Source: Rhina ancylostomus
Taxonomy: Eukaryota
NCBI GenBank assembly: GCA_030265395.1
Contig: JARFYF010000084.1
Location: 87,988,290 to 88,052,289, forward strand
Length of the DNA: 64,000 nucleotides
Reading direction: 5' to 3'
A program made the translations under genes and the position numbers. Positions 22,101 to 61,600 of the stretch are shown one piece after another (position 1 is the first letter of the stretch; each line of letters begins with the position of its first letter). The notes under the pieces were generated by a model. It had not been told where the DNA came from and did no database searches. It saw only the letters and a program-made list of their open reading frames with translations.

Positions 22101-25100
22101 AAACTGGAACCTCCTTAGTGCAAGAGGTTTAGACAGGGCAGAATTTGTTAGGTCCATCCAAGAGGGTTTCTTAAATCAACATGTAGATCGTCCAATGAGA
22201 GGAGGGGCCTTCCTGGACCTGGTGTTGGGTAATGAGCCTGGTCAGGTGACCAACCTTTCAGTGGGAGAACAGTAAGGGAACAGTAACCACAGCTCCTTAA
22301 GTTTTAAGACAGCTGTAGAGAAGGATAAGTATGGACCTAGCGTGTGAGTATTAAATTGGAGCAGGGCAAATTACGAGAGCAATAGGCAGGAACTAGGGAA
22401 AATTAATTGGAAACAATTGTTTCTGGGCAAGTCCANNNNNNNNNNNNNNNNNNNNNNNNNNNNNNNNNNNNNNNNNNNNNNNNNNNNNNNNNNNNNNNNN
22501 NNNNNNNNNNNNNNNNNNNNNNNNNNNNNNNNNNNNNNNNNNNNNNNNNNNNNNNNNNNNNNNNNNNNNNNNNNNNNNNNNNNNNNNNNNNNNNNNNNNN
22601 NNNNNNNNNNNNNNNNAGCACTTGAGGATTACAAAGAAGCCAGAAAGGAACTCAAGAAGGGAATTAGGAAAGCCAGGAGAGGCCATGAAAAGTGCTTGTC
22701 AAGTAGGGTTAAAGAGAATCCCAAGGCATTCTATATATACATCAAGAGCAAGAGGATAACTAGGGAGAGGGTAGGACTCAAGGATGAAGGATGGAACATG
22801 TGCTTGGAAGCAGAAGATGTAGGTGAGGTCCTTAATGAGTATTTTGCATCAGTATTTATCAAGGAGAAGGACATTGAGGAGGGAGAGATCAGTGCAGAGC
22901 ATGTTGATATGCTAGGGCATTTCAAGATAGAGGAGGAGGTAGTGTTGGGTCTCTTAAAGAGCATTAAAGTGGATTAGTCCTCAGGGTCTGATGGGATATA
23001 CCCCAGGTTATTGATTGAGACAAGAGATGAGATTGCTGGGGCCTTGACCAAGATCTCCATGTCCTTTCCAGCCACAGACGAGATCCTGGAGGGCTGGCAA
23101 GTAGCTAATGTTGTTCCACTATTTAAGACGGGAAACAGGGATAATCCTGGTAACTATAGACCAATGTCTCACATCAATGGTAGGGAAGTTACTGGAGAGG
23201 ATTGTTATGAGCATTTGGAAAACCACAGCCTAATTAGGGACAATCAGCATGACTTTGTGCAGGGCAAGTCATTCCTTACCAACTTGATTGAGTTTTTTGA
23301 CAAGGTGATGAGGGTGATTGATGAAGGTAGAGCTGTGGATGTTGTCTGCATGGATTTTAGTAAGGTGTTTGACAAGGTCCCTCACGGGAGGCTCACCCAG
23401 AAGGCTAAGATGAACTGGCCGTTTGGATTCAGAACTGGTTTGCCCATAGAAGACAGATGGGTCAATGGGACTTATTCTGGCTGAAGGTCTAGTGGCATTC
23501 CTCAGGGATCCCTAGTAGGACCTCTGCTGTTCGTGATGTTTATAAATGATCTGGATGAAAATGTACATATGTGGGTTAGTAAGTTTGCAGACAATACAAA
23601 GGTTGTTGTATTGTGTACAGCGTAGAAGACTGGAAAAGTATGCAGTGGGATATAGAGCAGGTGCAGATATAAGCAGAGAAATGGCAGATGGAGTTCAACT
23701 GGCCTAATGTGAGGTGCTGCACTGTGGGAGATAAAATGTAAAGAGACAGTACATTGTTAATAGCAAAACCCTTAACAGTGTTGATGAACAGAGGGATTTT
23801 GGGTTCCAAGTTCATAGCTCCCTGAACATGGCTACACAGGTTGATAGGGCGGAAAAGAAGGCATATGGCATGCTGGCCTTCATTAGTCGAGGTACTAATT
23901 CAAGAGTCAGGAAGTTATGCCTGCAACTTTATAAAAGTTTAGTTTGGCTGCATCTGGAGTGTTGCATTCAGTTCTGGTCGCCCCATTATAGGAAGGATCT
24001 CAAGGCTTTGGATAAGGTACAGAAGAGGTTTCCCAAGATGCCTGGATTAGAGGGCATGTGCTGTGAGAATAGGTTGGACAAACTTGGTGTGTTCTCTCTG
24101 GAGTGGCAGAGGCTGAGGGGAGATCTGACTGAGTAAACCTAGGGGGAGATATGAGAGGCATAGATAGACATCCAGTATCTATTCCCCAGGGTTGAAATGT
24201 CTAATACCAGAGGGCATACATTTAAGGTGATGGGGGGAGGGGGGACAAGTTCAAAGGAGATGTGCGGGGCAAATTTTTTTTACNNNNNNNNNNNNNNNNN
24301 NNNNNNNNNNNNNNNNNNNNNNNNNNNNNNNNNNNNNNNNNNNNNNNNNNNNNNNNNNNNNNNNNNNNNNNNNNNNNNNNNNNNNNNNNNNNNNNNNNNN
24401 NNNNNNNNNNNNNNNNNNNNNNNNNNNNNNNNNNNNNNNNNNNNNNNNNNNNNNNNNNNNNNNNNNNNNNNNNNNNNNNNNNNNTCTACGAAAAAAAGCA
24501 TTTCCCACCCCCCCCCCACCCTCACCCCCAGTGATATTAGTTAAAGGATAAATGAATCCCATGGACACCAGGGAAAACTCTTCTCCCCTTCATGTGTAGT
24601 ACAGGATCTTCTGTGCCCATTCCAAGAGAGCAGGCAGGGTGTACTTTGATATCCGATGACAGTCCCTGGATACTCCAGCTCTCTCTCAGAGCTGTACTGA
24701 AGTGTCATGTACAAGGGTCTCAGGAGCAGAGCTTGAACCTTCAGCTTTCTGCCTTGGGTGAGGTAAGAGGATTTTTTGAGTGACACAAACCTATATTCTG
24801 GCATGCTATTCAATATGAAAAGAATATAACAAGAATAGCATCTTGGGCAACCTGAAGGAAGGTTCCAGCATTATTGGCTAGGTGTTAGCTGCCTCACACC
24901 ATGAACGGGCTGGAGACACAAGAGCTTGCAGATGCTGGAATCTGGAGCAAAAACCAAACTGCTGGAGGAACTCAGATTCAGGCAGCATCTGTGGAGGGAA
25001 ATGGACGGTTGATGCTTCAGGTCAAGACCCTTCATCTGGACCAGTTCCTCCAGCGGTTAATATTTTTGCCCCATGAAGTGGGTGAATTGGTAAAGTTATT

Positions 25101-37100: not shown

Positions 37101-40100
37101 TCATTGAAGTTTTCTGCCAGGAAGGCCAAATGTGGTGCTTCCACCCCAAGGACTTAGAGTTGGCAACCTTAATTTAACCCTCTACTGCTGAGACCATCAC
37201 TCCAATTTGATTACACTCTCCCCTTTTCAACAATAATTTTAAGGGGGCTGTTTGCTGCTCATTGTCCAGTTTTCAATTCCATTCGCAGTTCTTCAGGTAA
37301 AGAAGCAAACTGCTGGATGCAGCCAGAGCCAGAGAATGTAACTAGATCAGGTGCGCAATAGTTACTGGAGCAGATCAGTTGCTGGATTATCTGTGGAAAC
37401 TTGCTTGATTTTAAGTTTTTCCTTTACCTATAAGGCACCAATCAGGGGTGTAATTAAATACTGACACCTGGATGAGTGCAGCTCCAACAACATGTAAGAA
37501 GTGTTTGGGGGAGGGGGGAGTGGGGGGCGCGGGGGAGGCATTAAAAATTGGCCTTCCCGACAATGCTCACAGATGATAAAAGGAACCACCATCTGATTGA
37601 CCTGCATTATTGAATTCCATTTCTGATGTAGAAAAAATAATTAAATAATCAATGTTAATGAATTAAAGACTCTATGGATTTGCACAGGATAAGATTAGTC
37701 ATGCCATCTGGTCAGTTACAATCAGTATTAACTGCCACTATTCATTATATCTCTATGTCTTTACAGCAATCTTTGAGTATTTTCATCTATTTATTTTTAT
37801 TTCTTTGCCCTTTTTCAAATGGCTTGCATTACATTTCTAATACTCTATTTGCCTTTCTGTACCTCATGCCTTTTCCTCCTTCACTTTCTTCTCCTTCTAT
37901 TTCCCTTCAGACTGATGAAGATGATGATGGTGAGGTATGGCTGTTGTGTCGGGTTGTGGAGACCTTTGTCTCATGGAAACATTATCACTAAATTCATTTC
38001 GATGCTTTCTGTGCTGCTAACACTGTAATGGCCAACATGAGGAGCAAATGATAGCCAAGCCCTCATGTTTAATTGCACCCTTTCAAACAGCATTAACTTA
38101 CTGACCTTGTTTCTAAGTGTTTTGACAGCATAATTTCATGTATACTAATATCTGGAGAATTTGCGGCTCTCTAATTTGTTGGTTAAGGATTGTGATGGTT
38201 TTTGATTCTTTCCAGATGCAACACAAATTTCCTAAAATTTTTTTAATACTGACTGCAGACATCAAACTTTACATGTCAGAGTTGAATCTGATAATGAACA
38301 TACCGACATCTATATTTGGAATACTTTGTCATGATGGTTACATGATTATTATTACTTCTAATTTTTGTTTAGTTGCAGATTGTTCATTTGTAATTGGCAC
38401 TTTCATCAGCATTGTTTATCCACAAAAATCCCCAGCAGAAACCTCTCTGAATGACATACATGTCTTGTAAACTTCTGCTCAAAACACTGCTAGTTCATGC
38501 AGCAAGGCAAATCATAATAGAGAAAAATAATGCACACTTTAGAAATCTGATATAAAATCAAAGGATATTAGAAATTCACAGCAGGTTTATTCGTAAGCAG
38601 GCTGCCATTTCCTTCAGAATATATTATTGTTAATAGATCACATTTTGGCTGCTTGGAAATCTGATAGTTATGATGATGTTGCCTTGGAAAACCTGAAAGC
38701 TTTATCTTGCAGTTTAAAATACAATCTGAACCATTATTTGAAGTGAAGCTTCTATTTAGTTTACAATTTTTAAAAGAAAAAAATCTTGCCTTTTATCAGT
38801 GAATCTGTGAACAATAAGAAATTGCTGGAAATTACTTCCATGTTTTGCCTGCTAATGTTTGTTGAAGCATTACTGATGACACCAGTACAAAGGAAGGATG
38901 GACTAGATGGATAATCCAGTGATTATGCAATGGCCATTCCATGTTGATTGGAACTATAAAATTTTACAATGCAAAAGAATGTTCATTCCATTTAGTCTGC
39001 ACTAACTCTTTGCTGGAGGAATCAGGTACTAATCCCAATAAATTATTTTACCAAGCCTTATAGTTTGCCTTGTGTTGAAACAAAGTCTGTCTGTCAAAAT
39101 AGACTAAAGGGATTGTGATTTAAATTGTTTAATAATTTTAATGGCAATGGACCAGAGTTTACTATAACAATTGGCTAAAAGATACCCATCCTCTGTTTAT
39201 TCTTGTTCATGTCTGTTTAATTTCTGAATTTAGGTGGCAAATTGCTATGGATGGGAGATGGAAATGGCATATCACCTTCCATGGGGCATTCTGTGCAGGA
39301 CAAACACTCTGTGGCCAATCAGACTCTGGAATCTAAAGTGGCAAATTTCAGTCAGAATACTGAATTCAATGTCAAATTGGCAGGGCAAGTGAAATGAAGA
39401 GAGTGAAAGTAAACTAATAGAAATAAATATAATAATTAAATTAAAATTAATCAATTACTTGTAAAACATACCAGAATTAAAATCTAAAGGAATGGATGTC
39501 CACACTTCTAAAGTTAATGTCCTGAGAGTTGGTTTGACACCAACAAAGGTGCTGTAAAATGTTTTTTAAAAAGGCTGCCTAGACAAGGCCTATCTTTTGT
39601 TCTATAGCAACTGTACAGGGACAGCTTTAGCTGAATGTATTTGAAAAGGGAGTCAAATGGAAAGTTGCTATTTTTACCCAGCTTTTATGGAAATGCATGT
39701 CAGGTTGCAATTTCTGTACTTCAATGTGTGTGCTCACTGGAAATTGCTATCTTAGTTGCATAATCTCAGAGTTATAGTGTCATAGAGTTATACAGCACAG
39801 AAACAGGCCCTTCAGCCCAACTTGTCCATGCTGACCAAGTTGCCAACCTGAGCTAGTCCCCATTTGCCTGCCTTTGGCCTATATCGCTCTAATCCTTTTC
39901 TATCCACGTCCCCACCTCTACCACCTCCTCTGGCAGCTTGTTTCAAATACGCAGCACCCTCTGTGTGGAAAAAGTTGCCCCTCGGGTCCCCTTTAAATCT
40001 CTCCCCTCTTACTTTAAAGCTATGCCCTCTAGTTTTAGATTCCCCTGCACGGGGGAAAAAGACTGTGACCATTCACCTTATTTATGCCCCTCAGAATTTT

Positions 40101-43100
40101 ATATACCTCTATAAAGTCACCTCTCAGCTTCCTATGCTCCAGGAAAAAAAGGCCCCAGCCTACCTGTTCTCTTCTTATAACTCAAGCCCTCCAATACTGG
40201 TAACAGCTTTGTGAATCTTTCCAAATAACAGCCTTTCATGCTTAAAGACATCCATCCTATAGATAGGTAACCAGAACTACACACGATATTTCAAGTGTGT
40301 TCTCACTGTCTCCTGTTATGGTTGCAACGTTAAGTCCTAAGTCCTGTTCACCTCTGCATACATTTAGTGCAAATTCCTGTCTGATGGGCATTCACCATTT
40401 TCCCAAAAGTCAGGATATTTCAATAAGTTACATATTGATAAATACTTTGATTTAAAAACTTGGCTGCTATAAACTGATGATTTTAAAATATAAAACAGAA
40501 ATGTTCAAGTTGACAACTGGAGATATTTGTTCGCAAGTGATCTTTAAATTGGACTTTATCTGTCAAAGTGCGGTTTCATGTGTACTTAGGTTTTCATGCT
40601 ATGGGGTTTGTTATAGAGCAGTGTAGTGATGACATTGGACAAGGATGGCTGGAGATTAGCAAGAAATCAGCACCTTGAGGAAACTTGAATTTCTTTAGTC
40701 TACGGCAGTGTCAACTGGGAAGGACAAGCAAAATTAAGAATGAATGTGTATAATAAATACTTAGTTTACATCCTTCATTGAGCAGAGGCCTGCTCATTAG
40801 CTGGATGTATAGCGATACATAACAGCAACAGCACACATTTACTGAAGCAAGGAGAACAAGGTGCAGCTGTCAAAGTTATTAATCTGCAAATATTCACAAC
40901 ATTGCAAAATATGATGTTGGGTTCAGAAAGCAGCTGCTTACTGGGATGTCCCTTGTTGCCAACACCGTGTCATTCNNNNNNNNTAATGCATAGCTATGCC
41001 ATTGTACAACCTAGTGAAATATCAAGTTCAAGGTTGGATCTGGGTCCTGTTGCCGCAAAAGCAATTTAAATATTTTAAAGAGATGTCAGTCTATTTCATA
41101 TAGGATAACTGCCTAAATCTTCAAGTAATCGTTGCAAAGTTTAAAGGCAAATTTCTGTAGTCGGGAAATGGAACAAAAGTCAAATGAAAATGGCCCTCCA
41201 CAACTCTTCATATATGGGGCCATAAATAAACAGTTAAATAGATGTTTTATCAGCCTAAAACACTGGATGCAGAATTTTTGAGGCTCTCTGCCATCATCTC
41301 TACATAGAGTATGAAGTACACTGATCCTTTGTAAAGTATTGTACAAAATCTACAATTTGGTAGGATGGCAGTAGTGTAGCAAATACAGCAAAGATGAAGC
41401 CTGCCCAAAAATTTTGGCCTTTATTTGTACTCGGAGGCAGGGAAGTGAAGTAAAACATGCTTAAAGAATTTGTAAAGGCTAGAGCCATGGAGGTCCCACT
41501 GAAATTGAGAAATTATTTCTTTAATTTCCCACCTGGCAGTAGGCCAGATTCATGGATTGATATAGTGGTGGGACAGGTTACACCACTATATCAATCCCTC
41601 CACTCTTTGTGAAGGTCAGGCTCTGCATGAGTGATTCATGCCATTCACAACTCATGCAAAGGCAACCAAACATGCCTCACATAGTGTTGGATGCCACTGC
41701 ATGTTATCTGGTACCTCTTTGCTTCAGTGCACTATGTGCACAGAAGGCCCACAAGCAATTTGGTGTCATCATCAAGTAAGTTTTCTGATTGAATTATGTT
41801 GGCTGGCTCGTATAAATATTCACTATGTGATACAAGTTCTATGCCAATATTAGCATCAAGCGACTAGCTTGCAAACTAAAATTCCTGACAATAGGTTGCC
41901 TTTATTATTCTACTAATGTTCTCTTAATGTTTCTCAGAGCCATCTATTTTATAGAAAATACAAAAAGCAATCTGAGATTGTTGGAGAATTTATTATTGCA
42001 ACAGTATGTTATTGTTTTAAAATTACTCTTTGAGCTGAATATAATCCTGTTCTCATAGCATTCACCTCCACAAACATTTTCACAACTTGTACTATGCAAC
42101 ATACTGAAATAATATCCCTGCATTGAAGTAATGACAATATGTACCTGATTTGTTGTATAGACAGGAAAGTTCTCCAGCAATACTGCAACTGTCTCAAGTG
42201 AGACCCAGCCACAGGGATTGCAGTATGCAGAAGAGGCAGCAGAACATGAAAATATGAAAGCAGTGCTTAAAACCTCTGTACCGAGTGGAGAAGTTACTGC
42301 TGGAGTACCAGGCGTGCGAACCCGAACGAGAGCAAGCCGAGGTAAAAGTTCCCATTTAACCTGACCCCTTATCCAGCTTCTGGTATTGTGTCACATAGGC
42401 TTGTCAATCAAGCAGCAGTTGGAGCTGACTGATGCCCAGTCTCCCCCTTCTCTTCTTGAGGTCTTTTCCTTATTAAAAGTTTGAGTACTAACGAAAGCTT
42501 GAGAAAGGAAAAGCTTAGTGATGGAGAATTCAAGAATTCTCCTGTAAAAACATGTTAACTGCTTGTGTCACATTAAGCCAAAGCTCAAGCTGATCCAACT
42601 GCAAATGCATTCATTCCTCAACCTTCAACAAACAGTGCAACTGCAAAAATCTTCGTTCACACAGGTCATTCAACAACCCCAATTACCCAACACAGAGGAA
42701 GAGTGCCTGGGAAAGGCTGGGGTCTCTCTCAGCCAGAAGCCTCTCAATGTTCTGCCATACAGTTATGCTGAAAAATCTGGGTGGAGGTGGACTGCTGGGT
42801 GGCGATTGGGAAGCCAGAAGCTGGCCAGTCAGCAGCCACTCCACCTATGCAGCAACCTATTTCTCCATCAATCCAGCCATGTTCTGTCCCGCAACCTGTT
42901 ACTTCCAGAACCACTAATGCAGAGCTTATATGATTCCACCCAATATCAAGCCCTGGGATCCTGCATCCTTAATTGTGCAAAATGTAAGTTCATTATTAAC
43001 TACGTTACATGGTTTTGCTCTTCAAGGCCGTGTTGGCTCATGGGCTCCAGGAAATGATGACTCCCCAAATGCCACAGATGATGCTGCAGATGAAATCATG

Positions 43101-46100
43101 GACCGGATTGTAAAGTCTGCGACTCAAGTGCCAAACCAGCGAGCAGTGCCTAGAGAGCGGAAGCGGTCTCGTGCAAACAGGAAATCTCGTAAGTAATTAT
43201 TGTTAGAATATTGAACAGCACAGGAACAGGCCCACGATGTCTGTGCCAAACATGATGCCAATTTAAATTAATCCCATCTGCCTGCACTTGGTCTCTGTCC
43301 CTCCATTCCGGCCTGTTCATGTGCCTGTCTAAATGCCTCTTAAACATCACTATCGTATCTGCTTCCAAGACCTCCGTGGCAGCGTTTTCCAGGCACCTAC
43401 CACCCTGTGTTTAATAAAAATACTTGCCTTGCAAAACTTTCCTCCTCTCTTAAAACTGTGCCCTCTGGTATGCCTTTTGACCCTGGAAAAAGACAATGAC
43501 TACCAATATCTATATCTCTCATAATTTTATATACTTCCATCAGGTCACACGTCAGCGTCTTAATGCTTCAAAGAAAACAATCCAAGTTTGTTCAACTGCT
43601 CTTTATGGCCAATACACTCTAAATTTGTGCAATATCTTGGTGAGCCTCTTTTGCACTGTCTCCAAACTGTCCATATACTTCCTGTAACATAGGAACCAGA
43701 AATACACACAATATTTCAAATCTGGCCTAATCAACGTTTTGTACGGCTTCCATGTGATTTCACAACGTTTATACTCAATGCCCCAACTGATAAAAGCAAG
43801 TGTACTGCACACCTTCTTTACCACCCTATTAACTGGTGTTGCCACTTTCAGGTAGCTATGGACTTGTACCCCACGATCCCTGCATATACAGTTTCAGTGC
43901 TCCAACGAGTCCTGCAATTTATTTGTATACTTTCTTTACATTTGACTTCCCAAAACACACCTTGCACGTTTCCAGATTAAACTCCATCTGCCTTTTCTCT
44001 GCCCTTATTTCCAACTGATCTATACCCTGCTATGTCCTTCGACAACCTGCTTCACAATCCACGACTCTGACAATGTTTGTGTCACTAGTGTAGGAAGCAA
44101 ATCAGAAATTCTAAGGATGAGTCCCATTCTTGAACTTTTAGCAAAGCTTAGTTCTCACTTGGTAATGGGCAAGAATGTGTCAGCACAGCCTATACCTTGT
44201 AGCCACTAGCTTCTTCCCCCTTATCCCACCACCCCCCCCCCCCAAGGCTAGCATCTTTCCAAATGTCAGNNNNNNNNNNNNNNNNNNNNNNNNNNNNNNN
44301 NNNNNNNNNNNNNNNNNNNNNNNNNNNNNNNNNNNNNNNNNNNNNNNNNNNNNNNNNNNNNNNNNNNNNAATGTCAGAAACATTTAGGTAAAAAAAAACT
44401 GGAATAAAGCATTATTTAAAAATTCAATACTATCATTGGTTATTTTGCAGAAATATACTATGAAATAAATATGATAAACAATGTTTAAATTATGTTCAGT
44501 AGCATGATTTAAATGAACAGAGCTATTTTAGTTGTGCCAGCAATGGCTGAAGTAAAGCGAGGGGCCAGAGATGAAGCATTATCTTGCCCCTTGGCTTAAC
44601 TATCTTGTGGAAGGCTTCTGGACTCAATGGGAAGAGTGAGAAGTCAATGCGTTCCTCCCCACAGAACAATGTGTAAGATGGAAACTGAGGTTTTTAATTC
44701 AGCATCAAGGGTGTCAAATTCTGACTCATTTTTATTGCAGTTATGAGTAACTCAATAAAGCACAAAGGTCTAGAAATTGCGCATCTCAAAAAGCACAAAG
44801 CTGACAATATGCCAATGAATGCTGTGTGCAAGGGCCTCCAGCAGCAAAATGTTATTGCACTACGGGAGCAGGGCATCTTACACCAAGCTACACAAGATAG
44901 TTTTTGATTGAATTCCATCCTGCAGCATACAAATTGTGCACTATTCATTAAAAAAAATTCTAGGCTAAAGCATTTACTTATAACTGAATACCATCCTTTA
45001 TGAATCAGAATCACATAGTGTGTTCAGTGGTCTTTATCTGTGCTGAGTCTGTTCTTGCTTTTTCACAGCTTTGCAGTTAGTCCAAATCCCCTGCTCTTTC
45101 CTTTATCTCTGCCCAGTTCCCTCTTAACCGTACTTATCTCATTTCCTTGCAGTGTTGAGCTGCTACTTCTATGCATGTAAGGTTTGCTCTGCAGATCACA
45201 ATAACTTGTCCCATTAAAAACAGAAGTTCTCATCATTTTTCCACTGGTTCTGTTGCCAATGACCTTAATTTACTTTCTCTATTTACTCTACCTCTGCCTC
45301 TGTAAACAGTTTCTCCATATAATCTATTAAGACCATTCCTACATTGAATGTTATTAAATCTCCCCTTAAACTTCTATGTTCTGAGTACAACCCCAGCTTT
45401 TCCAATCTCTCCATATAACTGACATTCCTGTATCCCTGACACCTTTCCAGTAAACCTTCTCCATACCTACTCCTAGGTCTTGGCATCCTCAAAGTGTGGC
45501 ACCCACTGGACCCCCAACCATGGATTTCTAAAAGTTTAACATAAACTGCCTCCATTTCAATTGGCATTTCCTTTAAAAGGGTACTACTTCACACAACTTT
45601 GTTAAATATTATCTGCCATTTTTCAATCATCTGTCCATGTTCTCGTAAAGTCCTGCCATTTAGTGTGTCTACACTAAATGGGACCACTGCCTCCTAGAGG
45701 ATTATGTCATTTATACTTCCCAGCAATTGGTAAAGCAGCTTTCTAACCAATAATCCTCTGCATTTAAGTTTTAATAACATGTCCATGATGTTGTTCTTCA
45801 TCAAATATCTTTTGCAAACCAATATCACATCAACTACGTTACTTCCATCAGTCCTTTTCAATACTTCAGCAAAGCACTAATCAAATGCATCTTGCCTTTA
45901 ATAAATTCAGACTTGCTGTTTAAAATTTGTTGGCATTTAACAGAAAAGTGCCAATTAATTTTGTTTGTTAATCACCTGCAATTGTTTCTTTGCCATTAAA
46001 GTTGGGCTGATTTCCCTGGAGACACCTGGTACGTTACCCTTACACTTCTCAAAAAAACAATGGCTTAATATTAATCCTCTGGCATCTGACAGGTTGAAAG

Positions 46101-49100
46101 TTTATGGCCCACAACTTCATTATTTTCACCCTTACTTCTTGCAGACACCAAGACTAAATTGTGCCCTGACTGGCAGTATTTTAAGTGCCTTAATCAGCTT
46201 CACACAAACCTTGATTACTTGGTTTTAGCATTCTCATCTCTATTGAACACTAACCTATTCTCAGACTTTTTTTCCCCTTCTATTTCCCTTCCCTGTTTTC
46301 CTCTGCACTTTTTAAAGTTCAGTTCTCAGGTTGCAGACCTGGATTTAAGCCACCATTTCCTGTTTTATTTTGGTCTACTCTTCTTCAGTAATTGCGAAAA
46401 CTCTCGTTTTGTCTCTACTTCTGTCCCTTTTGTAAAGCTCTAGTTTTGCCCCTCCTATTGAATGTGTCCAACTCATATCTGAACAATCTCATCTCTGAAG
46501 ATTTCTGATTTAATGTTTTAACTGAAAATCTTTGAATCTTATCCACTAAGACATGGTCCCTTTTTCAGTTCACTGAAAATAGTTATCTTCTAGTTGACTC
46601 TTCTTTGTCCTTTTCTATAGCTACTTTAATAACATGATAATAATTGTTTGACAGATGTTTCACCAATAAAATAAACTCACTTTCCCCTCTTTATTCCCCA
46701 GATGCACGTCCAGAAAGGCTTCTTTATGACTTGAGCAGGAAACACACAAATTAAAGTTTTTATGCGATTTAATAATGCCTCCCTCACTTCCTCGCTCACT
46801 TTCTTAAACACATTAAATGTTAGCAATTTAATACTTTGCATTTCTTGCATTGCTTTGTTAGATTGAAACAAAGATAATTTTGTCAAATGGGTCTTTGTTA
46901 GTCCTATTTTAATGCTTACCCTCACTGTGTGCTACCTGGGCACACCAACAAACATTCAAATTTATTGTTGGCTTTGAACCTATATGGTGAATATGTATGC
47001 ATGCATGCATGCTGTGGCCACCACTGAGTGCTGCTTGTTCTCAGCTGAGCCATTAGATGGCAGTCTTTCCTGCAGAGGCAAGGAAGCATAATCAGCTCGT
47101 GGTTAAATTGGTGATAAACCTTCAGTCACTGCCCAGGCTATGAACCATGATGGTCCAGCAAGAATCGAGACCATTTTTTTTAAAGCATTAGATTAATTTA
47201 GACACAAAATTTGGAAAATTGAGTCTTCTCCTTTGTAACTTATGCTAACCATTGATCATTACATTTTTAGATGTGACTTCACTTTGTTATCTTGCATTTG
47301 GTCTCGCCAAAGTAGACAGAGACTAGTTGACCGTTTCGTAGAGCACCTGCACTCCATCCGTAACCACAGTCTGCATCTCCCCATTGCCAGTCACTTCAAC
47401 TCTCCCACTCCATCACAGATATGTCAGTCCTTGGCCTCCTCCACCACCAGAAGTCCAAACGCAAACTGGACAAACCACCTCATTTTCCATCTTGGGACCT
47501 TACAGTCTAATGGCATGAACCTTGAATTCTCCCACTTTAAGTAAACTAAACTTCCCTCACTGCCCCCCCATGCCTCTTCTTTTCTTCCCTTTCCTAGCCT
47601 CTCTTTGGCTATTTTTCTCCTCCCCTCCTCCAATGGGGCACCTGCCTCCATATCTTTTGACCCATCCCCCAGTGGATCTGCTCTCCCCTCCTCACCTGCA
47701 TCTGCCTACCACTATCTCTTACCTGCATCTACGTATCACCACCCTACCTCCTGTCTTTTGTTCCCCCCCCCCCCATATATTGGGCTTCCCCTTTTCCCAT
47801 CTTCAGTCCTGAAGAAGGATCCTGACCCAAAATATTGACCGCCTACTTTTCTCCACAGATGCTGCCTGGCCTGCTTAGTTCCTCCAGCATTGTCGTGTTT
47901 TTCATCTAGACTCCAGCATCTGCAGTCTTTTGTTTTTCTAATGCACTTAACAAGTTCCAAGGTACTTTGCAGGACTTAACAAATAAAATTTCAAACCAAG
48001 ACACTTAAAAAGGACATTAGGACAACTGGGTCAAAGAAAGGTCTTAAAGATGAAAGAGAAGAAGAGAAGCTTTAGAAATCAACTAGGATCCAGACATCCC
48101 CTTCTGGTGGAAGAATGAAAAAATGCACGTGCAAGAGACCAGAAATNNNNNNNNNNNNNNNNNNNNNNNNNNNNNNNNNNNNNNNNNNNNNNNNNNNNNN
48201 NNNNNNNNNNNNNNNNNNNNNNNNNNNNNNNNNNNNNNNNNNNNNNTTCCCCTTTTCCCATCTTCAGTCCTGAAGAAGGATCCTGACCCAAAATGTTGAC
48301 TGCCTGCTTTTCTCCATGGATGCTACCTGGCCTGCTGAGTTCCTCCAGCATCTTGTTGTTTTTTCATCATTTTGCTCCCACTGTCAACAAGAGATAGAGA
48401 AACCAATAGTTAGGAAGATATCAGGGAGGAGGTTAAGAGGAGACATTATTGTGGTGTATAAAATTTGAGGGTATAGGTAGGGTAGACTGCAGGAAACCTG
48501 TCCTCAAGGCAGAGGTAGGTAAAGCAGAAGAGATAGGTTTAGGGTAAGGGGGAAGAGAATTAGAAGGGGATATGAGGGAAACTGTCTTTACCCAGAGGGT
48601 GGCAAGTACCTGGAATGCACTGCCCGGTTGAGGCTGCATCATTGACACCATTTACGAAGTGTCAAGATGAGCATTTGAACCAATTAGGCAAAATAGGCTG
48701 TGGACCAAGTGCTGGGAGATGGGATTAGCATTGGAAGGGTGCCCACTGGTCAGCATGGACAAGTTTGTACAATTCTATGACTCTGACTTGAGCCCTGAGA
48801 GGTGCCTCATCTCATGACAGTTCAACATCTCATGTGAAAGACACAGAGCTGAACTGGATCAACAGCTTTGACCTTTGAGTTCAAGCTTCTAGAGTAGTAC
48901 TTGATCCCAGAACCTTCTGACTGACCCTCAATACAACAAATATTCTAAGTATTAGATTAAACTTTCCATCGCTTGTTATAATGATTTTGTCAGTTTAAAA
49001 TGGAAGAAAGTAGGACAGGAATACCTGGCTCATCAAACCTCCCTGTCATTTCAATATGATCATCGTTGCTTTGTCTCAGGCTTCATCTCCTCTGCCATAC

Positions 49101-51582
49101 CAGTTCACCATCACCCTCAATTATGCAGTCACAGAATTATATAGCACAGAAACAGGCCCTTCAGCCAACCACATCTATGCCGATCTATACTAATCCTNNN
49201 NNNNNNNTCTCTGCCTTGCTCATTCAAGTACCTCTCCAGATGTCTCTTCAATGTTACTGTTCCTGCCTCCTCCAGCAGCTCATTCCAGTACCAACTACAC
49301 TTTTTGTGAAAAATGTACCCCTCAGTTCCTCTTTAAACTTCCTCTCACCTTAAATCTGTGCCTTCTAGATTCTGGCACCCCTCCCATGAGAAACAGACAC
49401 TTGACTACCTACCCTATCTATGCCTCTCATAATTTTATATACCTCTATCATGTCACCTCTTAGCCTCCTTTCGCTTCACAGAAAACAGACCCTGCCTATT
49501 CAATATCTCCTTATATCTCAAGCCCTCCAATAATCTAGTCTTTCTCTAGTTATCTTTCTTTTTTAAACTACTCTCCACCGCCCTTAGAAGCAGAGAATTC
49601 CAGAGATTTACTGTCCTCTGTGAGAAGAAGTTTCTATATGTCTCCATTTTAACTGATTGCTCCCTAATCTTGTACCTCTATCCCCTCATTCGAGACTCAC
49701 CCACTAGTGAGAACACCTCCCTGGTTGTGGCCCCATAGTATTTTATACATTTTATTCCCCCACATCCTGTAACCTCACACTCACTTTTCCTTCACCCACA
49801 AATTAGTTGACCATGATGTGAGTAAAAGCATGCCTGGATTAGCAGCAGGCATCGCTAAACCTGAGGTGCTAACCTGGTGAAGCTACAACTTAGGATCCTG
49901 AGTATACTAAGCAGCATCATGTTTACAAAAGGTAAGCATTTCCACTCCCATAGATCAGGTCAAAGTTACTGCCACTTCCATACCTAAGCATTTCTTGTGG
50001 TGGATATTAAGCAACAAATAAGCAAATTAGGTGGCTCTACAAACCTCTCCAATCTCAATAATGATGAATTGTTACATATGGTTAAAAGATGAGGTTGATA
50101 GTTTGCAACTATCTTCTTCTGCTGGAAAAGTTATCCTGTTCAGCTATCTTCACTGCCCCCCACCCCATCACACACAATTATCTCAAGACAATTTGATTCA
50201 CTCAATATGACCTTGAGAGTGAGTGAGGCACTTGACGTGGTAATGATGGCTTTCAGACAATATCCTTGTTGTAGCTCTGAAGAAATGTGCTCTGGAATAA
50301 ATGGAGTTCATTACCATTCTGTACAAATNNNNNNNNNNNNNNNNNNNNNNNNNNNNNNNNNNNNNNNNNNNNNNNNNNNNNNNNNNNNNNNNNNNNNNNN
50401 NNNNNNNNNNNNNNNNNNNNNNNNNNNNGACAGTCACAGTTAGTGTTTCTCATCCATCAATAGAGAAAACAAGCAGGCTGGTGTCTCTCTCTCTTGTTCT
50501 TCTGTCTCTTTCTCCTCCCTCTCCTTCGGACTGACTCCAACTGGTTGTTCCAACAACGACGGCATGACATTCTTTATCTTCTGTTGACGTAAGCTGGCCA
50601 CGCACACACTCACACACACACTATCTAAAAGGGACACTCACTGATAGTCCCAGTCTGTAACACAAGGGAATCTAGAACTAGGGGTCACTGTTTATAAATA
50701 CAGGCGACCCCTGCATTAAGGCCATTTGGATTATGGAAACTCTCCCTAACAGATCATGTAATGGACCTCGTTTTATTGTTCTAATTGTGTGTTTTCTTGT
50801 AAAAATTGTGTATAATTTATGCTGATTTTATGTTTTTCTTGTGAATGCTGCTTATCTGATGCTCTGTGCCTGTGATGCTGCTGCAAGCAAGTTTTTCATT
50901 GCATCTGTGCACACATGGACTTGTGCGTATGACAATAAACTTGACTTTGACTTTGACACAAATCACCATCCAAAAAAATTGAGATACAGAATAAGATTCA
51001 CTCTTACAGAAATTATGCAGAAAAAAACCATACCTAGGTATCTCCTTTCTACAGAAAGCAATACTAAGCCAACCTGCCCAATTTCTGTCTCAGCAGCCTA
51101 CTCTCAGTCTTCAAGTTATTGGAACGAGCCTTCAACAGTGCTAACATGTGGCACTGACTCACCTCTAACTTGTTCCACTCACACGTTCCATAAAACTGAA
51201 GACTGCTTGCTCATCAGTCCAATTCTGTTGTTCAGCCAACTACAAATAGTGTCTGAGTATCACATTTCTCCCTGTGATACTCAGCTTACTTTTATTCCTA
51301 TTGCTTTATTTTGTTTTCCCATGCATTTTTCTCCTTTTACATGTGTGCTTTCTCATTGCTTTGCAAACATCACATGAAAGGTTTGCTCAGCATTGTATCT
51401 AGAAGTATAGAGGGATTTTTCAACCAAAAATTCTGAAAATGCAATGCCTTGAGTTAAGAATGTGACCTTAGTGCATCTGTATTTCTCTCTCTCTTATAGT
51501 AAGAAGAACATTAAAGAATGGCTTGACACCAGAAGAGGCCAAAGCACTTGGTTTGGTCAGCACTTCTGAGATGCAAGTGTGA
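6952..51582 (+). CDS. FHOD3: FH1/FH2 domain-containing protein 3 (formin), 5'-partial spliced CDS: join(6952..7110,11039..11221,11945..12064,20567..20728,27765..27955,32893..33085,37911..37934,42161..42341,43027..43188,51500..51582)
   Basis: All junctions are AG/GT with compatible phases (0,0,0,0,2,0,0,1,1). Total 1458 nt = 485 aa + TGA. The translation closely matches the vertebrate FHOD3 FH2-DAD C-terminus as I recall it, and the TDE microexon favours FHOD3 over FHOD1. Upstream exons lie outside the window. Confidence 0.95.
8330..8668 (-). mobile_element. HE1-like V-SINE with CR1-type tail
   Basis: Minus strand has tRNA-like head (tagcacagctaatagagctgctacctcacagc...ggttcaat), V-domain tgtggagtttgcacattctc and tail gctgaaggacctgcttcc. 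Confidence 0.8.
9920..10400 (-). mobile_element. Old DeuSINE-like SINE remnant
   Basis: gaagcacttttccaactgaagt...gtaggaagtgcagcagccaatttgca resembles the reverse complement of the Deu-family tail; similar to copies at 29.0, 35.5 and 35.8 kb. Confidence 0.5.
11039..11221 (+). CDS. FHOD3: FHOD3 coding exon (FH2)
   Basis: atttttag|AAAATC...GAGAAG|gtaac; [61 protein letters not shown]. Confidence 0.96.
11945..12064 (+). CDS. FHOD3: FHOD3 coding exon (FH2, GNFLN motif)
   Basis: ctacag|GAAGTT...TCAAAT|gtgagt; [40 protein letters not shown]. Confidence 0.96.
13340..13540 (+). mobile_element. LINE/SINE 3' end fragment (ggcaataaatgctggcc...gcccacatccc tail family)
   Basis: Tail ggcaatgaatgctggccaggctggtaatgcccacatccca; same family at ~7560, ~37540 and ~55200. 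Confidence 0.55.
13570..14050 (-). mobile_element. Old CR1 LINE 3' fragment
   Basis: Minus-strand ORF remnant [13 protein letters not shown]. Confidence 0.7.
15310..15435 (-). mobile_element. Penelope-derived short repeat with hammerhead-like motif
   Basis: Minus strand ggtt-ctgatga-aaggtctttgact-aaaa-tgtt-aact followed by ccacagaggctgcttgacttactgagtgtttccagcat. Confidence 0.65.
15824..18776 (+). mobile_element. CR1-clade LINE (ORF2 with RT, degenerate) interrupted by a nested insertion
   Basis: [44 protein letters not shown]; 3' tail gggccgaaaggcctgtcctgtgctgtactgttctatg; stops and frameshifts. Confidence 0.92.
17411..18054 (-). mobile_element. Younger 5'-truncated CR1 copy inserted antisense within the host CR1
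   Basis: ORF 17552..17983(-) [20 protein letters not shown]...; tail (TTTCTATG)2; flanked by TAATA at 17406-17410 and 18055-18059. Confidence 0.9.
20567..20728 (+). CDS. FHOD3: FHOD3 coding exon (FH2, EVKDT with the conserved Lys)
   Basis: ttcttgtag|GCCAAA...GCCAAG|gtatgt; [54 protein letters not shown]. Confidence 0.96.
21215..21410 (-). mobile_element. Retroposon 3' tail ending in (GACTTT)n; second copy at 50760-50957 (+)
   Basis: gatgctgctgcaag...ttttcattgca...tatgacaata..gactttgacttt shared by both copies. Confidence 0.7.
21815..24283 (+). mobile_element. CR1-clade LINE, APE endonuclease plus RT, degenerate
   Basis: [20 protein letters not shown] (endonuclease); [30 protein letters not shown] (RT); FWSPHYRKD. 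Confidence 0.93.
24915..25045 (-). mobile_element. Penelope-derived short repeat with degenerate hammerhead-like motif
   Basis: Minus strand ggtc-cagatga-agggtcttgacct-gaag-catc-aacc...ccacagatgctgcctga..ctgagttcctccagca. Confidence 0.65.
27349..27373. repeat. (TA)n microsatellite
   Basis: catatatatatatatatatatatatt. Confidence 0.9.
27765..27955 (+). CDS. FHOD3: FHOD3 coding exon (FH2)
   Basis: tttttctcag|GTTGAC...AACAG|gtaca; [63 protein letters not shown](R). Confidence 0.95.
29000..29360 (-). mobile_element. DeuSINE-like SINE remnant
   Basis: ctgttgtaatgttggaaacgtgcaggcaattagcacacagcaaggttccacaaacagcaatg matches the reverse complement of the Deu-domain region. Confidence 0.6.
30310..31028 (+). 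mobile_element. Old CR1 LINE 3' fragment
   Basis: [24 protein letters not shown] remnant; tail gctgaatggcctcctg. Confidence 0.8.
31775..31940 (+). mobile_element. DeuSINE-like tail
   Basis: gcttgctgcacataagttggctgctatgtttcctacatt...gaaacatttggagatattctgagg...tataaaaatgc. Confidence 0.6.
32893..33085 (+). CDS. FHOD3: FHOD3 coding exon (end of FH2)
   Basis: gtcttctag|ATTCCAT...ACAGAT|gtaagt; (R)[64 protein letters not shown]. Confidence 0.96.
35490..36225 (-). mobile_element. Two adjacent DeuSINE-like remnants
   Basis: caaagtgctttaaagtcaatgaa...agatcccacaaaaagcaacgagtaaatgaccagataatctg...cccctgctctt...catggaatcttttac. Confidence 0.6.
37911..37934 (+). CDS. FHOD3: FHOD3 24-nt alternative microexon TDEDDDGE (T(D/E)5XE, muscle-isoform CK2-site exon)
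   Basis: Long pyrimidine tract ...ttcccttcag|ACTGATGAAGATGATGATGGTGAG|gtatgg; phase 0/0, frame-preserving; lies between ...MITD and TGKFS..., the position of the mammalian TDEEEEVE exon. Confidence 0.9.
39770..40335 (-). mobile_element. CR1 LINE 3' fragment
   Basis: Minus-strand [25 protein letters not shown]; tail gggctgaagggcctgtttctgtgctgtataactctatga. Confidence 0.85.
42161..42341 (+). CDS. FHOD3: FHOD3 coding exon (post-FH2 linker)
   Basis: gttgtatag|ACAGGA...AGCCGAG|gtaaaa; [60 protein letters not shown](G). Confidence 0.93.
43027..43188 (+). CDS. FHOD3: FHOD3 coding exon (DAD core and basic region)
   Basis: ctcttcaag|GCCGT...AAATCTC|gtaagt; (G)[53 protein letters not shown](L). Confidence 0.93.
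43205..44085 (-). mobile_element. CR1 LINE 3' fragment beginning ~16 nt after the exon donor
   Basis: Minus-strand [16 protein letters not shown]...[11 protein letters not shown] and [10 protein letters not shown]. Confidence 0.85.
45240..45545 (-). mobile_element. Old CR1 LINE fragment
   Basis: Minus-strand [23 protein letters not shown]. Confidence 0.7.
47280..47940 (+). mobile_element. Penelope-like element 3' part: GIY-YIG remnant, pyrimidine-rich spacer and terminal repeat with hammerhead-like motif
   Basis: [45 protein letters not shown]; then cagtcctgaagaaggatcctgacccaaaatattgaccg at 47804-47841. Confidence 0.8.
48247..48370 (+). mobile_element. Second copy of the Penelope terminal repeat with hammerhead-like motif
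   Basis: Similar but not identical to 47787-47905; cagtc-ctgaaga-a-ggatcctgaccc-aaaa-tgtt-gactg at 48265-48302. Confidence 0.75.
48430..48785 (+). mobile_element. CR1 LINE 3' fragment
   Basis: aggttaagaggagac...tttacccagagggtggcaagtacctggaatgcactgcc...tctatgactct. Confidence 0.75.
49128..49530 (-). mobile_element. CR1 LINE 3' fragment
   Basis: atagcacagaaacaggcccttcagcc...ctatgcctctcataattttatatacctctatca is the reverse complement of the CR1 3' end. Confidence 0.75.
50760..50957 (+). mobile_element. Retroposon 3' tail ending in (GACTTT)n
   Basis: tgtgcctgtgatgctgctgcaagcaagtttttcattgca...gacaataaacttgactttgactttgac. Confidence 0.7.
51500..51582 (+). CDS. FHOD3: FHOD3 terminal coding exon
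   Basis: ctctcttatag|TAAGAAGA...GTGTGA; (L)[26 protein letters not shown]. Confidence 0.94.
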
Positions 51583-54500
51583 AGTGAGTTGACCATGAAC
51601 TGCGACAGATAACATCACTAGCACCTGAACAAGGCACAGCTAGAAACATTCAACTGACAACCATTTGCTGCTCATGGTATCCTGTCATCACCCAGCTCCA
51701 TTCATCATATGATGCATATGAGAAACACGAGCTAGAAAGAGATGGCACATTTGGCACTAAAGTTCTGACAGCTTTTAAAAAAATTAAATCAGGATTGTTC
51801 GGAAATATTTATACCTAGGTAAAAGTATTGCTTTTTTATCTAACTGAAGTGATTAGAAGACTTTAGTGGGTAAGCTGTTGTATGTGATATGTTTACATTG
51901 GCTTTACTTGTGACCTATTTGTGTAGGAGTGAAATGCACCATTTCAGTGTAAGAACCAGGCCTTAAGGAGACAGTGTGCTGATGTTGGCTGGCCACAAAT
52001 GTGACTGCTGTTTAACCTACATCCAAAAAAGGGAGTTAATACAACCTGACAAGAAATTGTTCAATTCTAGAAAGTATTATTTTTGTTGGCTTCTTTGGTA
52101 ATGGCGTTATTTTCTTTGGAGTATCATTGTGATTGTTAAATATTCAATGTTTCTAAGAATACCTTCTAACTATTATAGAATCCTGGGTATGCAGGGAGAG
52201 CAAGTTGCCATGCAGGCAACAGGCATCACTGTATTCATGCAGTTGATTTAATTATTAAAGGCTGAAAGGGATGGTGCTCGTAAAGGTGAAATTCCCCTTT
52301 TTAAATAATAAATACTGCAGTTGTTTCTAACATTAGGATTGCAGTAAAACTTTTTTGGCTAGTTTCAGTCAGAGAGGTAAGGTAATTATTTTTGCTGCAT
52401 GGGATGACAGAGTATGAGCACCTTGATGGCACTGAAATGCATTGGTGCCACAAGAGAACAGTTCATGGTGGGATATCTACATATGGGCTTAGTACATTAG
52501 CTGGTGATCAGAGCTGAGGCTAGATTTCATCTACTTCCTCTCCCTTCATGGGTGAAATATGGTCACTCACAAAATGTAGAAAATTCCAAGAGCGACTAGG
52601 TGTTTAGGGTTTTGCTGCATATAAAACAGTTCTCCCAGTCCGCAATGGGAAATGACGCTTGCGCTTCCTTGAATTTGGAATGGCATGGTAATTGTTGGTA
52701 TGGATACCCCAGCTCTCCATTCCGCTGGAACTTTGAAAATCACAATCAAATGAGGAAAGTAGTTGTAGGAAAAGAGACATGTCCAAAGGTTAATGACAGG
52801 TTAAATTCTGCAAAGGTATTACTCTTGTATAATAACCTACAGATTTTTGACTACTTCAGTAACAATGTGCACATGTATCCAAGAATGATAGAATGATCAT
52901 TCGACTAAAAACCAAACCATTAAGTTGAATCCTGATAATGAGTAAGCAGTCCTCAATTCCTTAGTACAACATGCATTACTGTAGCTTCAGTCAACTAGGT
53001 TAACACAAGAAATAGGTCCTTGAACTTGATAATTTGGCTTCTGTAGTTGTGTTGGGTTGATTCTATATAGAGGAAAGTAAGACCAGTATGAACTGAGTGA
53101 GATGTGGGAGATATTAATCTGCTTATTTGTGTGGCTTGCTTCAGGTTGGTTAAATGATTTACCCACATCTAAGGGGACACTCACTGTTACACTGGCATAA
53201 GGCAAGACCCTAAACATACTACGAGTATGAGTATGCTCACCTGCATAAAATTGCTCACAAGAGTATTATTTTAATACACTATGAAGATTCACGACCATGT
53301 CCAAACTCATGCTGAGATATTTTCAGTTACGTATTGAAAATATTTTGAGTTGTAACTGAATATGCTTTGAAGCTGCTTTTGAGGGAGTTAGATCAGTAAT
53401 CAGTTAGTTCAGAATGTTAGCCACCTGTAATCTTGATGCACTTGAACCCAAGCTTGATTAGAAGAGAGGTTTTGATTAGAACTCAACAAATAGCAATCAT
53501 AAAGAAATATTTATTGAAAGGTTGGCAAAAAGCTCTTACGAAAAGTCTCGGGAAAGAAGTGTAGTTCTGTTAATGTATGGAGAGTATAATAAATATCATC
53601 AAGGGNNNNNNNNNNNNNNNNNNNNNNNNNNNNNNNNNNNNNNNNNNNNNNNNNNNNNNNNNNNNNNNNNNNNNNNNNNNNNNNNNNNNNNNNNNNNNNN
53701 NNNNNNNNNNNNNNNNNNNNNNNNNNNNNNNNNNNNNNNNNNNNNNNNNNNNNNNNNNNNNNNNNNNNNNNNNNNNNNNNNNNNNNNNNNNNNNNNNNNN
53801 NNNNNNNNTTTGAACATGTTATAGTGTTGAGTGTAGAAACAATGAACAAATGCGAGGGTAGAGGTGGCTGGGCCAAGAGTTTTATTTTTTATATCTGTGC
53901 CATGAGCTGGTTCTGGCCATGACATTGTTCTACTAAGTCAATAAAGTTTTTTTTAAAGTTTTGTCCAGTATAGAAATCTTTAAATCTCCACATTGCATTC
54001 CTTATCTGTGGAGTTTGGTGCTGTGAAGCTGCCAGTTTAAAACCTAATTTCTCCTCCGCTCTGGAGGAAAGGCTACTTCTGACTCTGGCCAAGTGTTAAT
54101 AAAATCTATTCTTCTGTAATTCAGATAATTGAATTATTCATTTCTTTAACAAGAGTAACAGCTTTGTGCTATTGTGAGTAGATGTGTTGTTTGATGGAGC
54201 AACGGAATATGTTGGCACTAACGTGGCTTGGGGTCTTGTGGTGGGTGGGGGGGGGAGGAAATCATGAGATGTGAAGGACTTTAACCATAAAACTCCAGGG
54301 ATCGCAAGCAGCAAATTGTGTTAGCGATTGAGTCTCTAAACATAAATGAAGGAGCATGATGGCTAGTTTCTGTTTAATGTACTTCTTGCATTTGTTTATT
54401 TCAGAGAAGTATGTAACTCTTGTTTGAATTAAATTAATGACAAGTTTTCCTACACCTCACCCTCCAGAGCAACTTAAGTGATGTTGGAGAGAACACATGC

Positions 54501-58659: not shown

Positions 58660-61600
58660 AAGCCTATTTTTCCAGTTTTATTTGTGATGATTGGTCAAGC
58701 CTAGCAAATGGAAGGCACAGATGTGAGTGCAGTCCTGTAGTACATGATTTTCCCAGATAGTAACTTATTCTAGAAGATTTCAAAAAAGCTTTTTCTCACC
58801 ATAAGTGATAATTTCCTTAATCTAATTTCTGACCAGTGCCACCACTGAGGGTGTGGCTTGTGGGGTGAGATTGTAGAATTAGTTAAATTAAGCTGCCATT
58901 ATGGGCCATGACTCCTGAACTGATGCCAGTGTCAAGGCACTGACTTTGCTGTGTTTCTCTTTGGAAGTTCTGGTTTGCAGAGTGGCAGTGGTAGTGGCAT
59001 CAGGTTGACTGGGTCTCTGCCCGGAGCAGCACAAAACAAGTGAAGGTAGAGTTTGGCAAAACAAGGAGGGGCAATTAAATAATTCAGTCAGTTTTTAAAG
59101 TTAATTTTTTAATTTACTCTTGACTGTCAAAGATATTGGGGATGACTGTCAGCTTTACAATAATTGGCCTCCATGCTGGCTGTGCTGTAACTGCAGCAGA
59201 TAGTCTGCTACCTGCCCTTGCAATGCACTCGACCCTGCATACACACTGAGAGTCTAGACATGGTCTTGTGCGAAGGGCCACACTGGAAGGAGTGTATCCC
59301 AGGGGCAAGCAGCCAGTGACATTTCAGGTACTGGAAGAACTACCTGAATATTTAATTCACAGGTTTTTACATTTGAAGCATTTATGAAAGTTTGTTTCCC
59401 TCAAATGAACGAATCCCTTGCTGGTGAACTGGTTATTCTGCAGTAGACAGGTCAATTTTTACAAAGATAACTTCACCTAACTATAATTTTTGTTAATACT
59501 CTGAAACCCTTTCAGCTCTGCATGGATTCACACCACATTAGCCCGCTGAAATCTCAATTCCCCATGTGTTAAGCTGGTTCATTCTTTTATAGATGAGTCT
59601 CAAAGTGACTGTCACACTTAACACAGCAATTTTCAATGCAACCACAGGACATGGAATACCTGGCCTTTATTTTATCATTCAACTCATTTTCCAGGTCCAG
59701 CATCTAGTTATTGGCTCTTTCCACCAAGATATTACAATGCTCACAATGAAACCAATTGTGCATTAGGTACCCACATTGGTGAACACCCCTATGCTGTCTG
59801 GGGTGACCTGTCAATTTAAGAACAGAAACAGTAGTCGTCACTCAGTCCTCCATCCTTCACAGCCACTCTCTGTGGCAAGTCCTTATGCACCTGTTTTAAT
59901 GACCACCCCCTAACCTTGTAATATATGCCTCAGTTTCAGATTCTCTCACTATTAGAAACGTCTTGCCATCTACTCTGAATCGCAAGATCCGGAAGGGGAC
60001 ATGACAGTAACATCTCTGCTCATTCTTCGGAACTGCAAATAATAAAGATCTATTTTCTCTTACATTTGTCCATTCCCCCTTGCATTCTGATCTCTATTTT
60101 TGATGTTTTCTTTCAACAGAACTCAGTCTACACTCAAGGAACAGCATTTCATCTTCTATCCAGGCCTTGCACAGCCTTCAGAACTTTCCGCAAACACTGC
60201 CTGAACAGGATTCTTCTCAGATTTATGGCAACTATGGTGTTCATTACCTCCAGCATCCAATATTGCTTCCCTCTCCCCCCTCCCCCCCCCTTTTTTGTCC
60301 TCTCACTTCCAATGTCTCCTCCAGACATCAGCTGATCAGNNNNNNNNNNNNNNNNNNNNNNNNNNNNNNNNNNNNNNNNNNNNNNNNNNNNNNNNNNNNN
60401 NNNNNNNNNNNNNNNNNNNNNNNNNNNNNNNNNNNNNNNCAGCACTATTTGCATCAGTCTCTCTTGATCTCCACCCCTCCCCTTCTCAGAAATTTACAAC
60501 ATATTTTCCCATACTGTCGAAAGGTCTTCCCATGAAAGATTTTTTTCAGTCATTCCACAAATGCTGCCTGACCTGCTGGGAATTTACGGATTTTTTTACT
60601 GCAGAACCCTTTTTAAAGCTGAAGGTTGGTAGAACAGGTGTGTGAACACAATTCCTGACAAGGCAATAGGAAGGGAAAAAAAACAGAAAATCCTTATGAA
60701 CTTAGAGATGCTGCATTGGTCTGATACGGCCCAGAGAAATCTCTTGTTTTTAAACAATTCCAGCAGTGCACGATTAACATGCTAAACAAAAAGTAGTGCC
60801 TTAATTTGTGAAGATGTTAAAAGTGCCTGTGGCCAGTTTTAATATCTGCTTATTAGCTTTAAGTGAGTCATCTTCTGGAACTCCTCAATCTCTTGCCCTT
60901 CTGCAGGTTCCCGTCTCTCACCAGTTAGAATAAATTCTTGATTCATCCATCCTTGGATCCAAACTAGATGATCTCATGTTTGGCTCCGTTGAGTTCCCTC
61001 TGTCTCAGTTTTATCGCTTACTTGACCCGGCTGTAGACATTTGCAATTTCCTACTTAATTCTGAATAAATACTGTCTCTTTTAATTTAGATTCATCTGTA
61101 AACTCAATAGCTACCTATGTAGTCCTTCATTTATTATTAATAAATGTTAATACACTAATTCATCAGGGTGCCACCTTGGGAACATCACTTGTCCCAGCCT
61201 GTCGATCTCAGTATTTTCCCCCTTTTAAACCATTTCTCAGGTAATTTCTAATCCAAGACTAAAGGCTGCTTCCAAATCTGGAAACTCTGACCTTAAACCA
61301 TGATCTTTTGTGGAATAATACCAGTTGAGTTCTGAAAGTTCATCTAAATAAATCTATGAAATCATTTTTTTTTAAAACCTTATCCATGACTTTAAAAACT
61401 AAACACTTTTTACAACTCGCATTCAATGAACTCATGCTGGATCAGTGCATTTTTCTTGAGTGTTCAACTTTTCCCTTGTGACAGATTCTTGTACCTTAAG
61501 CCCATCCTGGCTTGAGGATTGGCAGGAAGACAGAACATGGTACAAATAAACCATCATTTTGGGCTTAATCTCACTGAAATGTACAAAATTCAGAAAAGCC

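Follow-up and report, generated by a model that had tools for sequence, protein, structure and literature searches.

The stretch analysed here, called the window below, is 64,000 nt of Rhina ancylostomus DNA (contig JARFYF010000084.1) and contains the last coding exons of FHOD3. Between the final two of these exons lie two copies of a hammerhead ribozyme motif within remains of a Penelope-like element (PLE). The features of this region are, in window coordinates:

43017..43187 (+): penultimate coding exon of FHOD3, approximate (tblastn), 93% to ray FHOD3 P0022, residues 1581-1637
47293..47316 (-): 24 nt of the element, inverted, at the 5' truncation point, YIG-ETK-coding on the minus strand
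47317..47544 (+): GIY-YIG endonuclease remnant, decayed, C-terminal part, up to the family stop
47545..47803 (+): pyrimidine-rich 3' UTR; over 47317-47940 several loci match collinearly at 70-78%
47804..47841 (+): hammerhead copy 1, with A for G12 at 47829, U17 at 47836, a stem II G-to-A change at 47819 and ACGU changed to AUAU at 47833-47834
47842..47939 (+): remainder of the terminal repeat (as far as 47906), then a tail of 33 nt (47907-47939)
47940..48146 (no strand): non-element intron DNA, 207 nt, single-copy-like and found in related organisms too
48147..48246 (no strand): run of 100 N, an assembly gap or a mask, the two being indistinguishable
48247..48368 (+): second terminal-repeat fragment, without tail, holding hammerhead copy 2 at 48265-48302 (G12-to-A at 48290, stem II G-to-A at 48280, C-to-T at 48294 and 48301, U17 at 48297)
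51499..51582 (+): last coding exon of FHOD3, to the stop, 96% to P0022, residues 1638-1664

The FH2 domain is encoded on plus-strand exons, several rays and sharks have an FHOD3 that matches one exon at 100% identity, and the ray FHOD3 protein aligns by tblastn as 24 collinear pieces that begin 93 kb upstream of the window and end at 51579. A PDB search with one exon returned other formins only, and the identity as FHOD3 was settled by the exon match and the tblastn mapping. The last FHOD3 intron therefore runs on the plus strand from about 43188 to 51498. It had been proposed that the motifs occupy the sense strand of an FHOD3 intron, and the exon mapping confirms this, placing them in the last intron of the gene of a cartilaginous fish. 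At about 37910-37934 (+), an acidic TDEDDDGE stretch followed by a splice donor resembles the muscle-specific micro-exon of FHOD3. The introns also hold decayed LINE reading frames at 16200-18650, 22350-24550 and 48425-48730, which from their translations are presumably of the CR1-like class.

Copy 1 forms the 3' end of a 5'-truncated element whose homology to other loci extends from about 47317 to 47939. The inverted piece at the truncation point has 4 mismatches to the natural copy L044 and matches L113 at 23/24 positions. The endonuclease remnant, one stretch of which is frameshifted, shares 44% identity with L123's open endonuclease frame (E 4e-22); its sense part covers only the C-terminal portion, and the YIG-coding piece is the 24-nt inversion. 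Copy 1 does not directly follow this remnant, as the earlier note had it, since the stop at 47542-47544 is succeeded by the 3' UTR of about 260 nt. Among 56 family copies, 23 carry the tail, 18 have an inverted partner at most 1.3 kb upstream, and 31 have N within 700 nt upstream. In many copies among loci L171-L290 the 5' truncation falls inside the hammerhead or shortly ahead of it, and several of these copies have a short inversion at the junction.

At the level of the family, the element comprises reverse transcriptase motifs, legible in the frames of L121-L123, a CX4CxxC linker, found in L044, L123 and other copies, a C-terminal GIY-YIG domain and a hammerhead in the 3' repeat. GIY-YIG was recognised in the family by Pfam at E 0.007, below the curated cutoff; the decayed fragments tried gave no reverse transcriptase domain in Pfam, and the endonuclease remnant of the window gave no relevant match. 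The hammerhead occupies the position of PLE terminal repeats, being 3' of the reverse transcriptase-endonuclease remnants in L121, L123 and L124 and 5' of the body in L122. This organisation agrees with that described for the Neptune clade in the available part of Craig et al. 2021 (PMC8557442), in which reverse transcriptase is followed by a CX2-5CxxC linker and then by a GIY-YIG domain at the C-terminus, the hammerhead lies in the terminal repeat, and inverted truncated partners and a tail of 30-40 bp occur. The linker is given there as a Neptune feature, absent in Penelope/Poseidon and reduced in Nematis, so the choice between Neptune and Nematis rests on this motif; a further difference is that the copies examined here contained no intact ORF. 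By these definitions, and judged by motifs and not by a tree, the element is classed as an abundant Neptune-type Penelope-like retrotransposon (PMC8557442). The near-full-length elements begin with an inverted terminal repeat (L122, 4240-4760; L121, 5338-5524), and L122 shows an inverted, tail-bearing copy facing a forward one that continues into the body of the element.

Both motifs read as the earlier note had described them, letter by letter, and both lie inside a 117-nt direct repeat (47786-47902 and 48247-48363) with 91% identity. Copy 2 departs from the family at three CpG positions (48290, 48294, 48301) and one non-CpG position (48280). Exact complementarity of CAGTC and GACTG in stem I had been noted, and it exists in copy 2; copy 1 instead has GACCG, which is also the family majority for the 3' arm and gives a stem of 3 bp followed, past an A.C mismatch, by one further pair. 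This majority rules out a perfect 5-bp stem I as the ancestral state, and the perfect stem of copy 2 is a CpG accident arising from the change at 48301. An Rfam scan of 44000-52000 returned no hammerhead family at E up to 10, which is weak evidence because minimal decayed motifs fall outside the Rfam hammerhead models.

The earlier note had expected that active copies might exist elsewhere in the genome, and intact cores are indeed abundant there. The intact-core pattern has 807 exact matches in the genome of the species against 0 for the reversed control, and the exact 5' 20-mer has 3,398 against 0, which puts the motif well above chance expectation. These intact cores and the column counts agree with a core of CUGANGA ... 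GAAA-N-palindrome-U-H, and the family motif is GUC CUGAAGA A GGGUC-CU-GACCC GAAA CG U U GAC, as in L044. The motif includes an unpaired base after A9 and the G10.1-C11.1 pair, and stem II can be read as 4 bp with a 4-nt loop or as 5 bp with a 2-nt loop. The expected helix lengths, 2-3 bp or more for helix I and 4 bp or more for helix II, are reached, the minimum free energy structure of the intact L044 being a hammerhead fold with 3 bp plus 4 bp. A type I minimal hammerhead of a Penelope-like element with a palindromic ACGU and an extra A after A9, as originally proposed, is thus what the family contains.

Of the first 100 intact-core matches listed, 96 carry U at position 17, and C and A stand there in 2 each. 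For a sample picked on the 3' side only, 120 loci were taken, 38 of which were truncated, gapped or carried indels and were set aside; U17 is present in 79 of the 82 copies with a readable in-register core. A C17 ancestor is therefore ruled out for this PLE family, and the earlier reconstruction with C17 and GACTG is wrong for it; that reconstruction matches sister families instead, in which 913 intact C17 cores, mostly CUGAUGA, were found. The alignment between families is too uniform, and too much selected by pattern, for covariation to be read from it. Among 213 matches, the first 100 show no linkage of the stem II G-to-A change to loss of G12 such as would mark a subfamily. In 5 of the 100 first-listed 20-mer copies the 5' arm of stem I reads CGGTC, which would pair fully with GACCG; these copies possibly derive from an older or minor source gene. 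An extra A after A9 reportedly occurs in the hammerhead of the CChMVd viroid as well, an analogy drawn in the earlier note. The extra A stands, while the viroid analogy is unneeded, given that an extra base at this place is a general feature of PLE minimal hammerheads and part of their published consensus (PMC4209133).

The terminal repeats of metazoan PLEs carry minimal type I hammerheads (Cervera and De la Pena 2014, PMC4209133). The motif described here shares with them the CUGANGA core, the extra base between A9 and G10.1, the G10.1-C11.1 pair, the palindromic 15.2/16.2 positions, a short helix I, a U-rich 5' flank, the lack of a helix III loop and an occurrence mostly as single dispersed copies from truncated elements, as far as these are set out in the accessible part of that paper. 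A 3-bp helix I is usual in the published set, and U17 occurs in 24 of its 56 rows, counted by eye, so that the U17 family motif, compared as sequence, fits the published consensus (PMC4209133). It differs in its short stem II and in the A.C mismatch of helix I after 3 bp, and the 56 rows of Fig. S3 in PMC4209133 are without cartilaginous fish; the two window copies differ further in having no G12. The known motif is in this way extended to a cartilaginous-fish family outside the 2014 survey (PMC4209133). Our search of freely accessible papers found no literature on elasmobranch Penelope hammerheads.

The computed fold of the intact copy L044 is a hammerhead at -7.0 kcal/mol. In the two window copies, the combined stems I and II were computed at +2.2 and -2.5 kcal/mol, compared to -5.6 kcal/mol for an alternative fold, and the duplex energy of the palindrome was -1.7 kcal/mol for ACGU versus +1.6 for AUAU and +2.6 for AUGU. 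G12 is the general base of the hammerhead (PMC6155905, in the part available), and GUU is a cleavable site, though not among the two fastest (PMC3138052). In the accessible part of PMC4209133, minimal hammerheads show no cleavage as monomers and low cleavage as dimers, and their likely role is the processing of element transcripts. On the basis of this literature, two family motifs would build helix III by pairing of their self-complementary ACGU, and the dimer would cut after GUU, by which element transcripts would be processed; the minimal hammerhead of the parent element was likely capable of weak RNA cutting as a dimer. In the window copies, loss of G12 together with a weakened stem II and palindrome would abolish cleavage. 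Since G12 is lost, another fold is preferred and the palindrome duplex is weakened, both copies are predicted to be inactive, and this is likely.

The C11.1-G12 CpG was counted in 3,252 copies with identical flanks. It is intact as CG in 1,337, reads CA (G12-to-A) in 932 and TG (C-to-T) in 983, so that about 29% of family copies share the G12 loss of the window copies. The CA/TG ratio is 0.95 (95% CI 0.87-1.04, p=0.25), with the reservation that C11.1-to-U is an imperfect control and not neutral, as it alters or weakens the conserved G10.1-C11.1 pair. Divergence from the majority in 34 copies reaches 37% at CpG positions versus 6% elsewhere. Symmetric decay of this CpG, with A found at 47829 and 48290, supports the proposal that G12 was lost by CpG decay. 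The earlier note had gone further and named selection as the reason for the loss, which our data do not support: G12-to-A is no commoner than C-to-T at the same CpG, and the sole same-family antisense copy in the mapped part of FHOD3 has lost G12 as well. Selection is therefore not needed, and the window copies have likely decayed by routine mutation.

The same origin might nevertheless have been followed by some selection, if intact hammerheads in sense introns cut the pre-mRNA often enough to favour changes that inactivate them, or the removal of the insertion. The ribozyme CpG does decay more than a control CpG outside the ribozyme (2,479 intact, 1,220 and 1,206 changed, ratio 1.01), being intact in 41% versus 51% and decayed in 59% versus 49% (chi-square 71); in the 82-copy sample it is intact in 30 copies (37%), as against 37 and 38 (45%, 46%) for two neighbouring CpGs. 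Read by eye, the mapped part of FHOD3 contains eleven core-bearing copies from several families; 8 of these are antisense and 3 sense, an excess that is not significant (about p=0.23 by hand), and none of the 11 has an intact core in either orientation. In Xenopus introns, tandem retrozymes are under-represented according to the available part of bioRxiv 10.64898/2026.07.22.740005, yet 42-44% of Xenopus retrozymes still overlap introns there. The direction that destroys G12 shows no excess, the antisense copy carries the identical loss, minimal hammerheads hardly cleave in the published assays described above, and the insertions are common to diverged relatives and have thus been tolerated for a long time. 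We therefore regard a contribution of selection as improbable. For the extra decay of the ribozyme CpG, sequence context would be the simpler cause, and weak selection would fit also; the view that selection against intact sense-intronic hammerheads left its mark in the difference of 59% versus 49% has, in our judgement, only a slim chance of being right. If it were, host pre-mRNA would truly be cut in vivo by the minimal hammerheads of Penelope elements, and such cutting could be put to a ready population test with the thousands of dated copies that rays and sharks carry. No literature was found that joins self-cleaving ribozymes, intron orientation bias and retrotransposons. In locus L062, an open frame about 290-460 nt upstream of the hammerhead looks like an ERCC3/XPB exon; this frame is in sense orientation to a family copy without G12.

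The two copies had been described as terminal repeats of one element, but the DNA between them matches none of the element sequences compared and the N run intervenes. When 47940-48146 was compared with family loci, including near-full-length elements and the body of L122 after its 5' repeat, no match was obtained, and this segment has single-copy-like depth in runs where the repeat has a depth of 10^5 to 10^6. The 3' junction of copy 1 is spanned by contigs of X2, X3 and X4, which run from the element end through 47940-48146, and that of copy 2 by contigs of X1, X3 and X4; X1 may be the same species and does not count as independent support. None of the runs listed for this sequence is of RNA. 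The flanks are up to 6-8% divergent in X3 and X4. The insertions thus seem to be old and shared, predating the split from relatives whose flanks differ by 6-8%, and the window copies appear to be two truncated insertions or parts of one complex insertion, both conclusions being less sure than those above. A short non-autonomous element or retrozyme, with the copies as its paired terminal repeats able to cleave as a cis dimer, would account for their direct orientation, their assembled spacing of 461 nt and the presence of the tail on one copy only. The 461 nt are, however, an assembled figure across the N run and not a true spacing, and the unrepeated intervening DNA, together with two cores lacking G12, largely refutes this reading, which we consider very unlikely. 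Animal non-LTR retrozymes, reported in the one chondrichthyan sampled, share type I hammerheads akin to those of Penelope terminal repeats, but they consist of tandem units each with a complete hammerhead, whereas here there is an upstream coding remnant, no tandem unit and no intact core, as compared with the available part of bioRxiv 10.64898/2026.07.22.740005.

A separate matter is the identity of the first 48 nt of the copy 2 repeat to copy 1. This stretch starts exactly at the 3' edge of the N run, which is also N in the species' own genome assembly and whose length of 100 is the commonest at the gap edges examined (135 of 399). The 48 nt share four minority states, with a joint chance of about 7e-4 if these are independent, while further 3' none of the 11 departures from the majority is common to both copies, and only 1 of 561 other copy pairs is alike over the first 48 nt. 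An exact duplicate of at least 14 nt lies nearby at 40 of the 399 gap edges of the assembly. It is therefore conceivable, although we would sooner bet against it, that most of the copy 2 hammerhead is not independent and was borrowed by the assembler at the gap edge or acquired by gene conversion. The coincidence shrinks to one of about 8% if the two non-CpG states came from one template, as in one complex insertion; most gap-edge duplicates are simple overlaps, unlike that of copy 2; no peak of 48-nt duplicates was found at the 399 edges; and three runs confirm the 3' junction of copy 2. The contigs neither bridge the N run nor resolve the 5' part of copy 2, and this missing coverage is no evidence either way. 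The identity may stem from borrowing during assembly, from gene conversion or from a single complex insertion, and non-independence would concern the origin of the pair only, being compatible with decayed PLE copies. Elsewhere in the window, 1779-2189 (-) and 3084-3154 (+) form an inverted duplicate beside two N runs, possibly an assembly artefact or another fold-back repeat.

Taken as a whole, it is highly probable that an abundant PLE of Neptune type left the two motifs as its decayed 3' ends, in sense in the last intron of FHOD3, that the parent ribozyme was likely a weak dimer cutter and that the copies are likely inactive through routine methyl-CpG decay. The window copies are real but ordinary, debris of a known PLE motif with thousands of siblings in the genome. 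The intact cores, at least 807 with U17 and 913 with C17 (the latter in sister families), constitute a resource within one genome, and combined with gene annotation they offer a route to ribozyme action in vivo, a question left open in PMC4209133. Decayed terminal-repeat fragments of sister Penelope families lie in the window at 15336-15432 (-), 24931-25036 (-), 5273-5319 (-) and 60554-60578 (+), none of the four with an intact core, and a second decayed PLE endonuclease remnant is found at about 1065-1178 (+) (tblastn E 2e-4).
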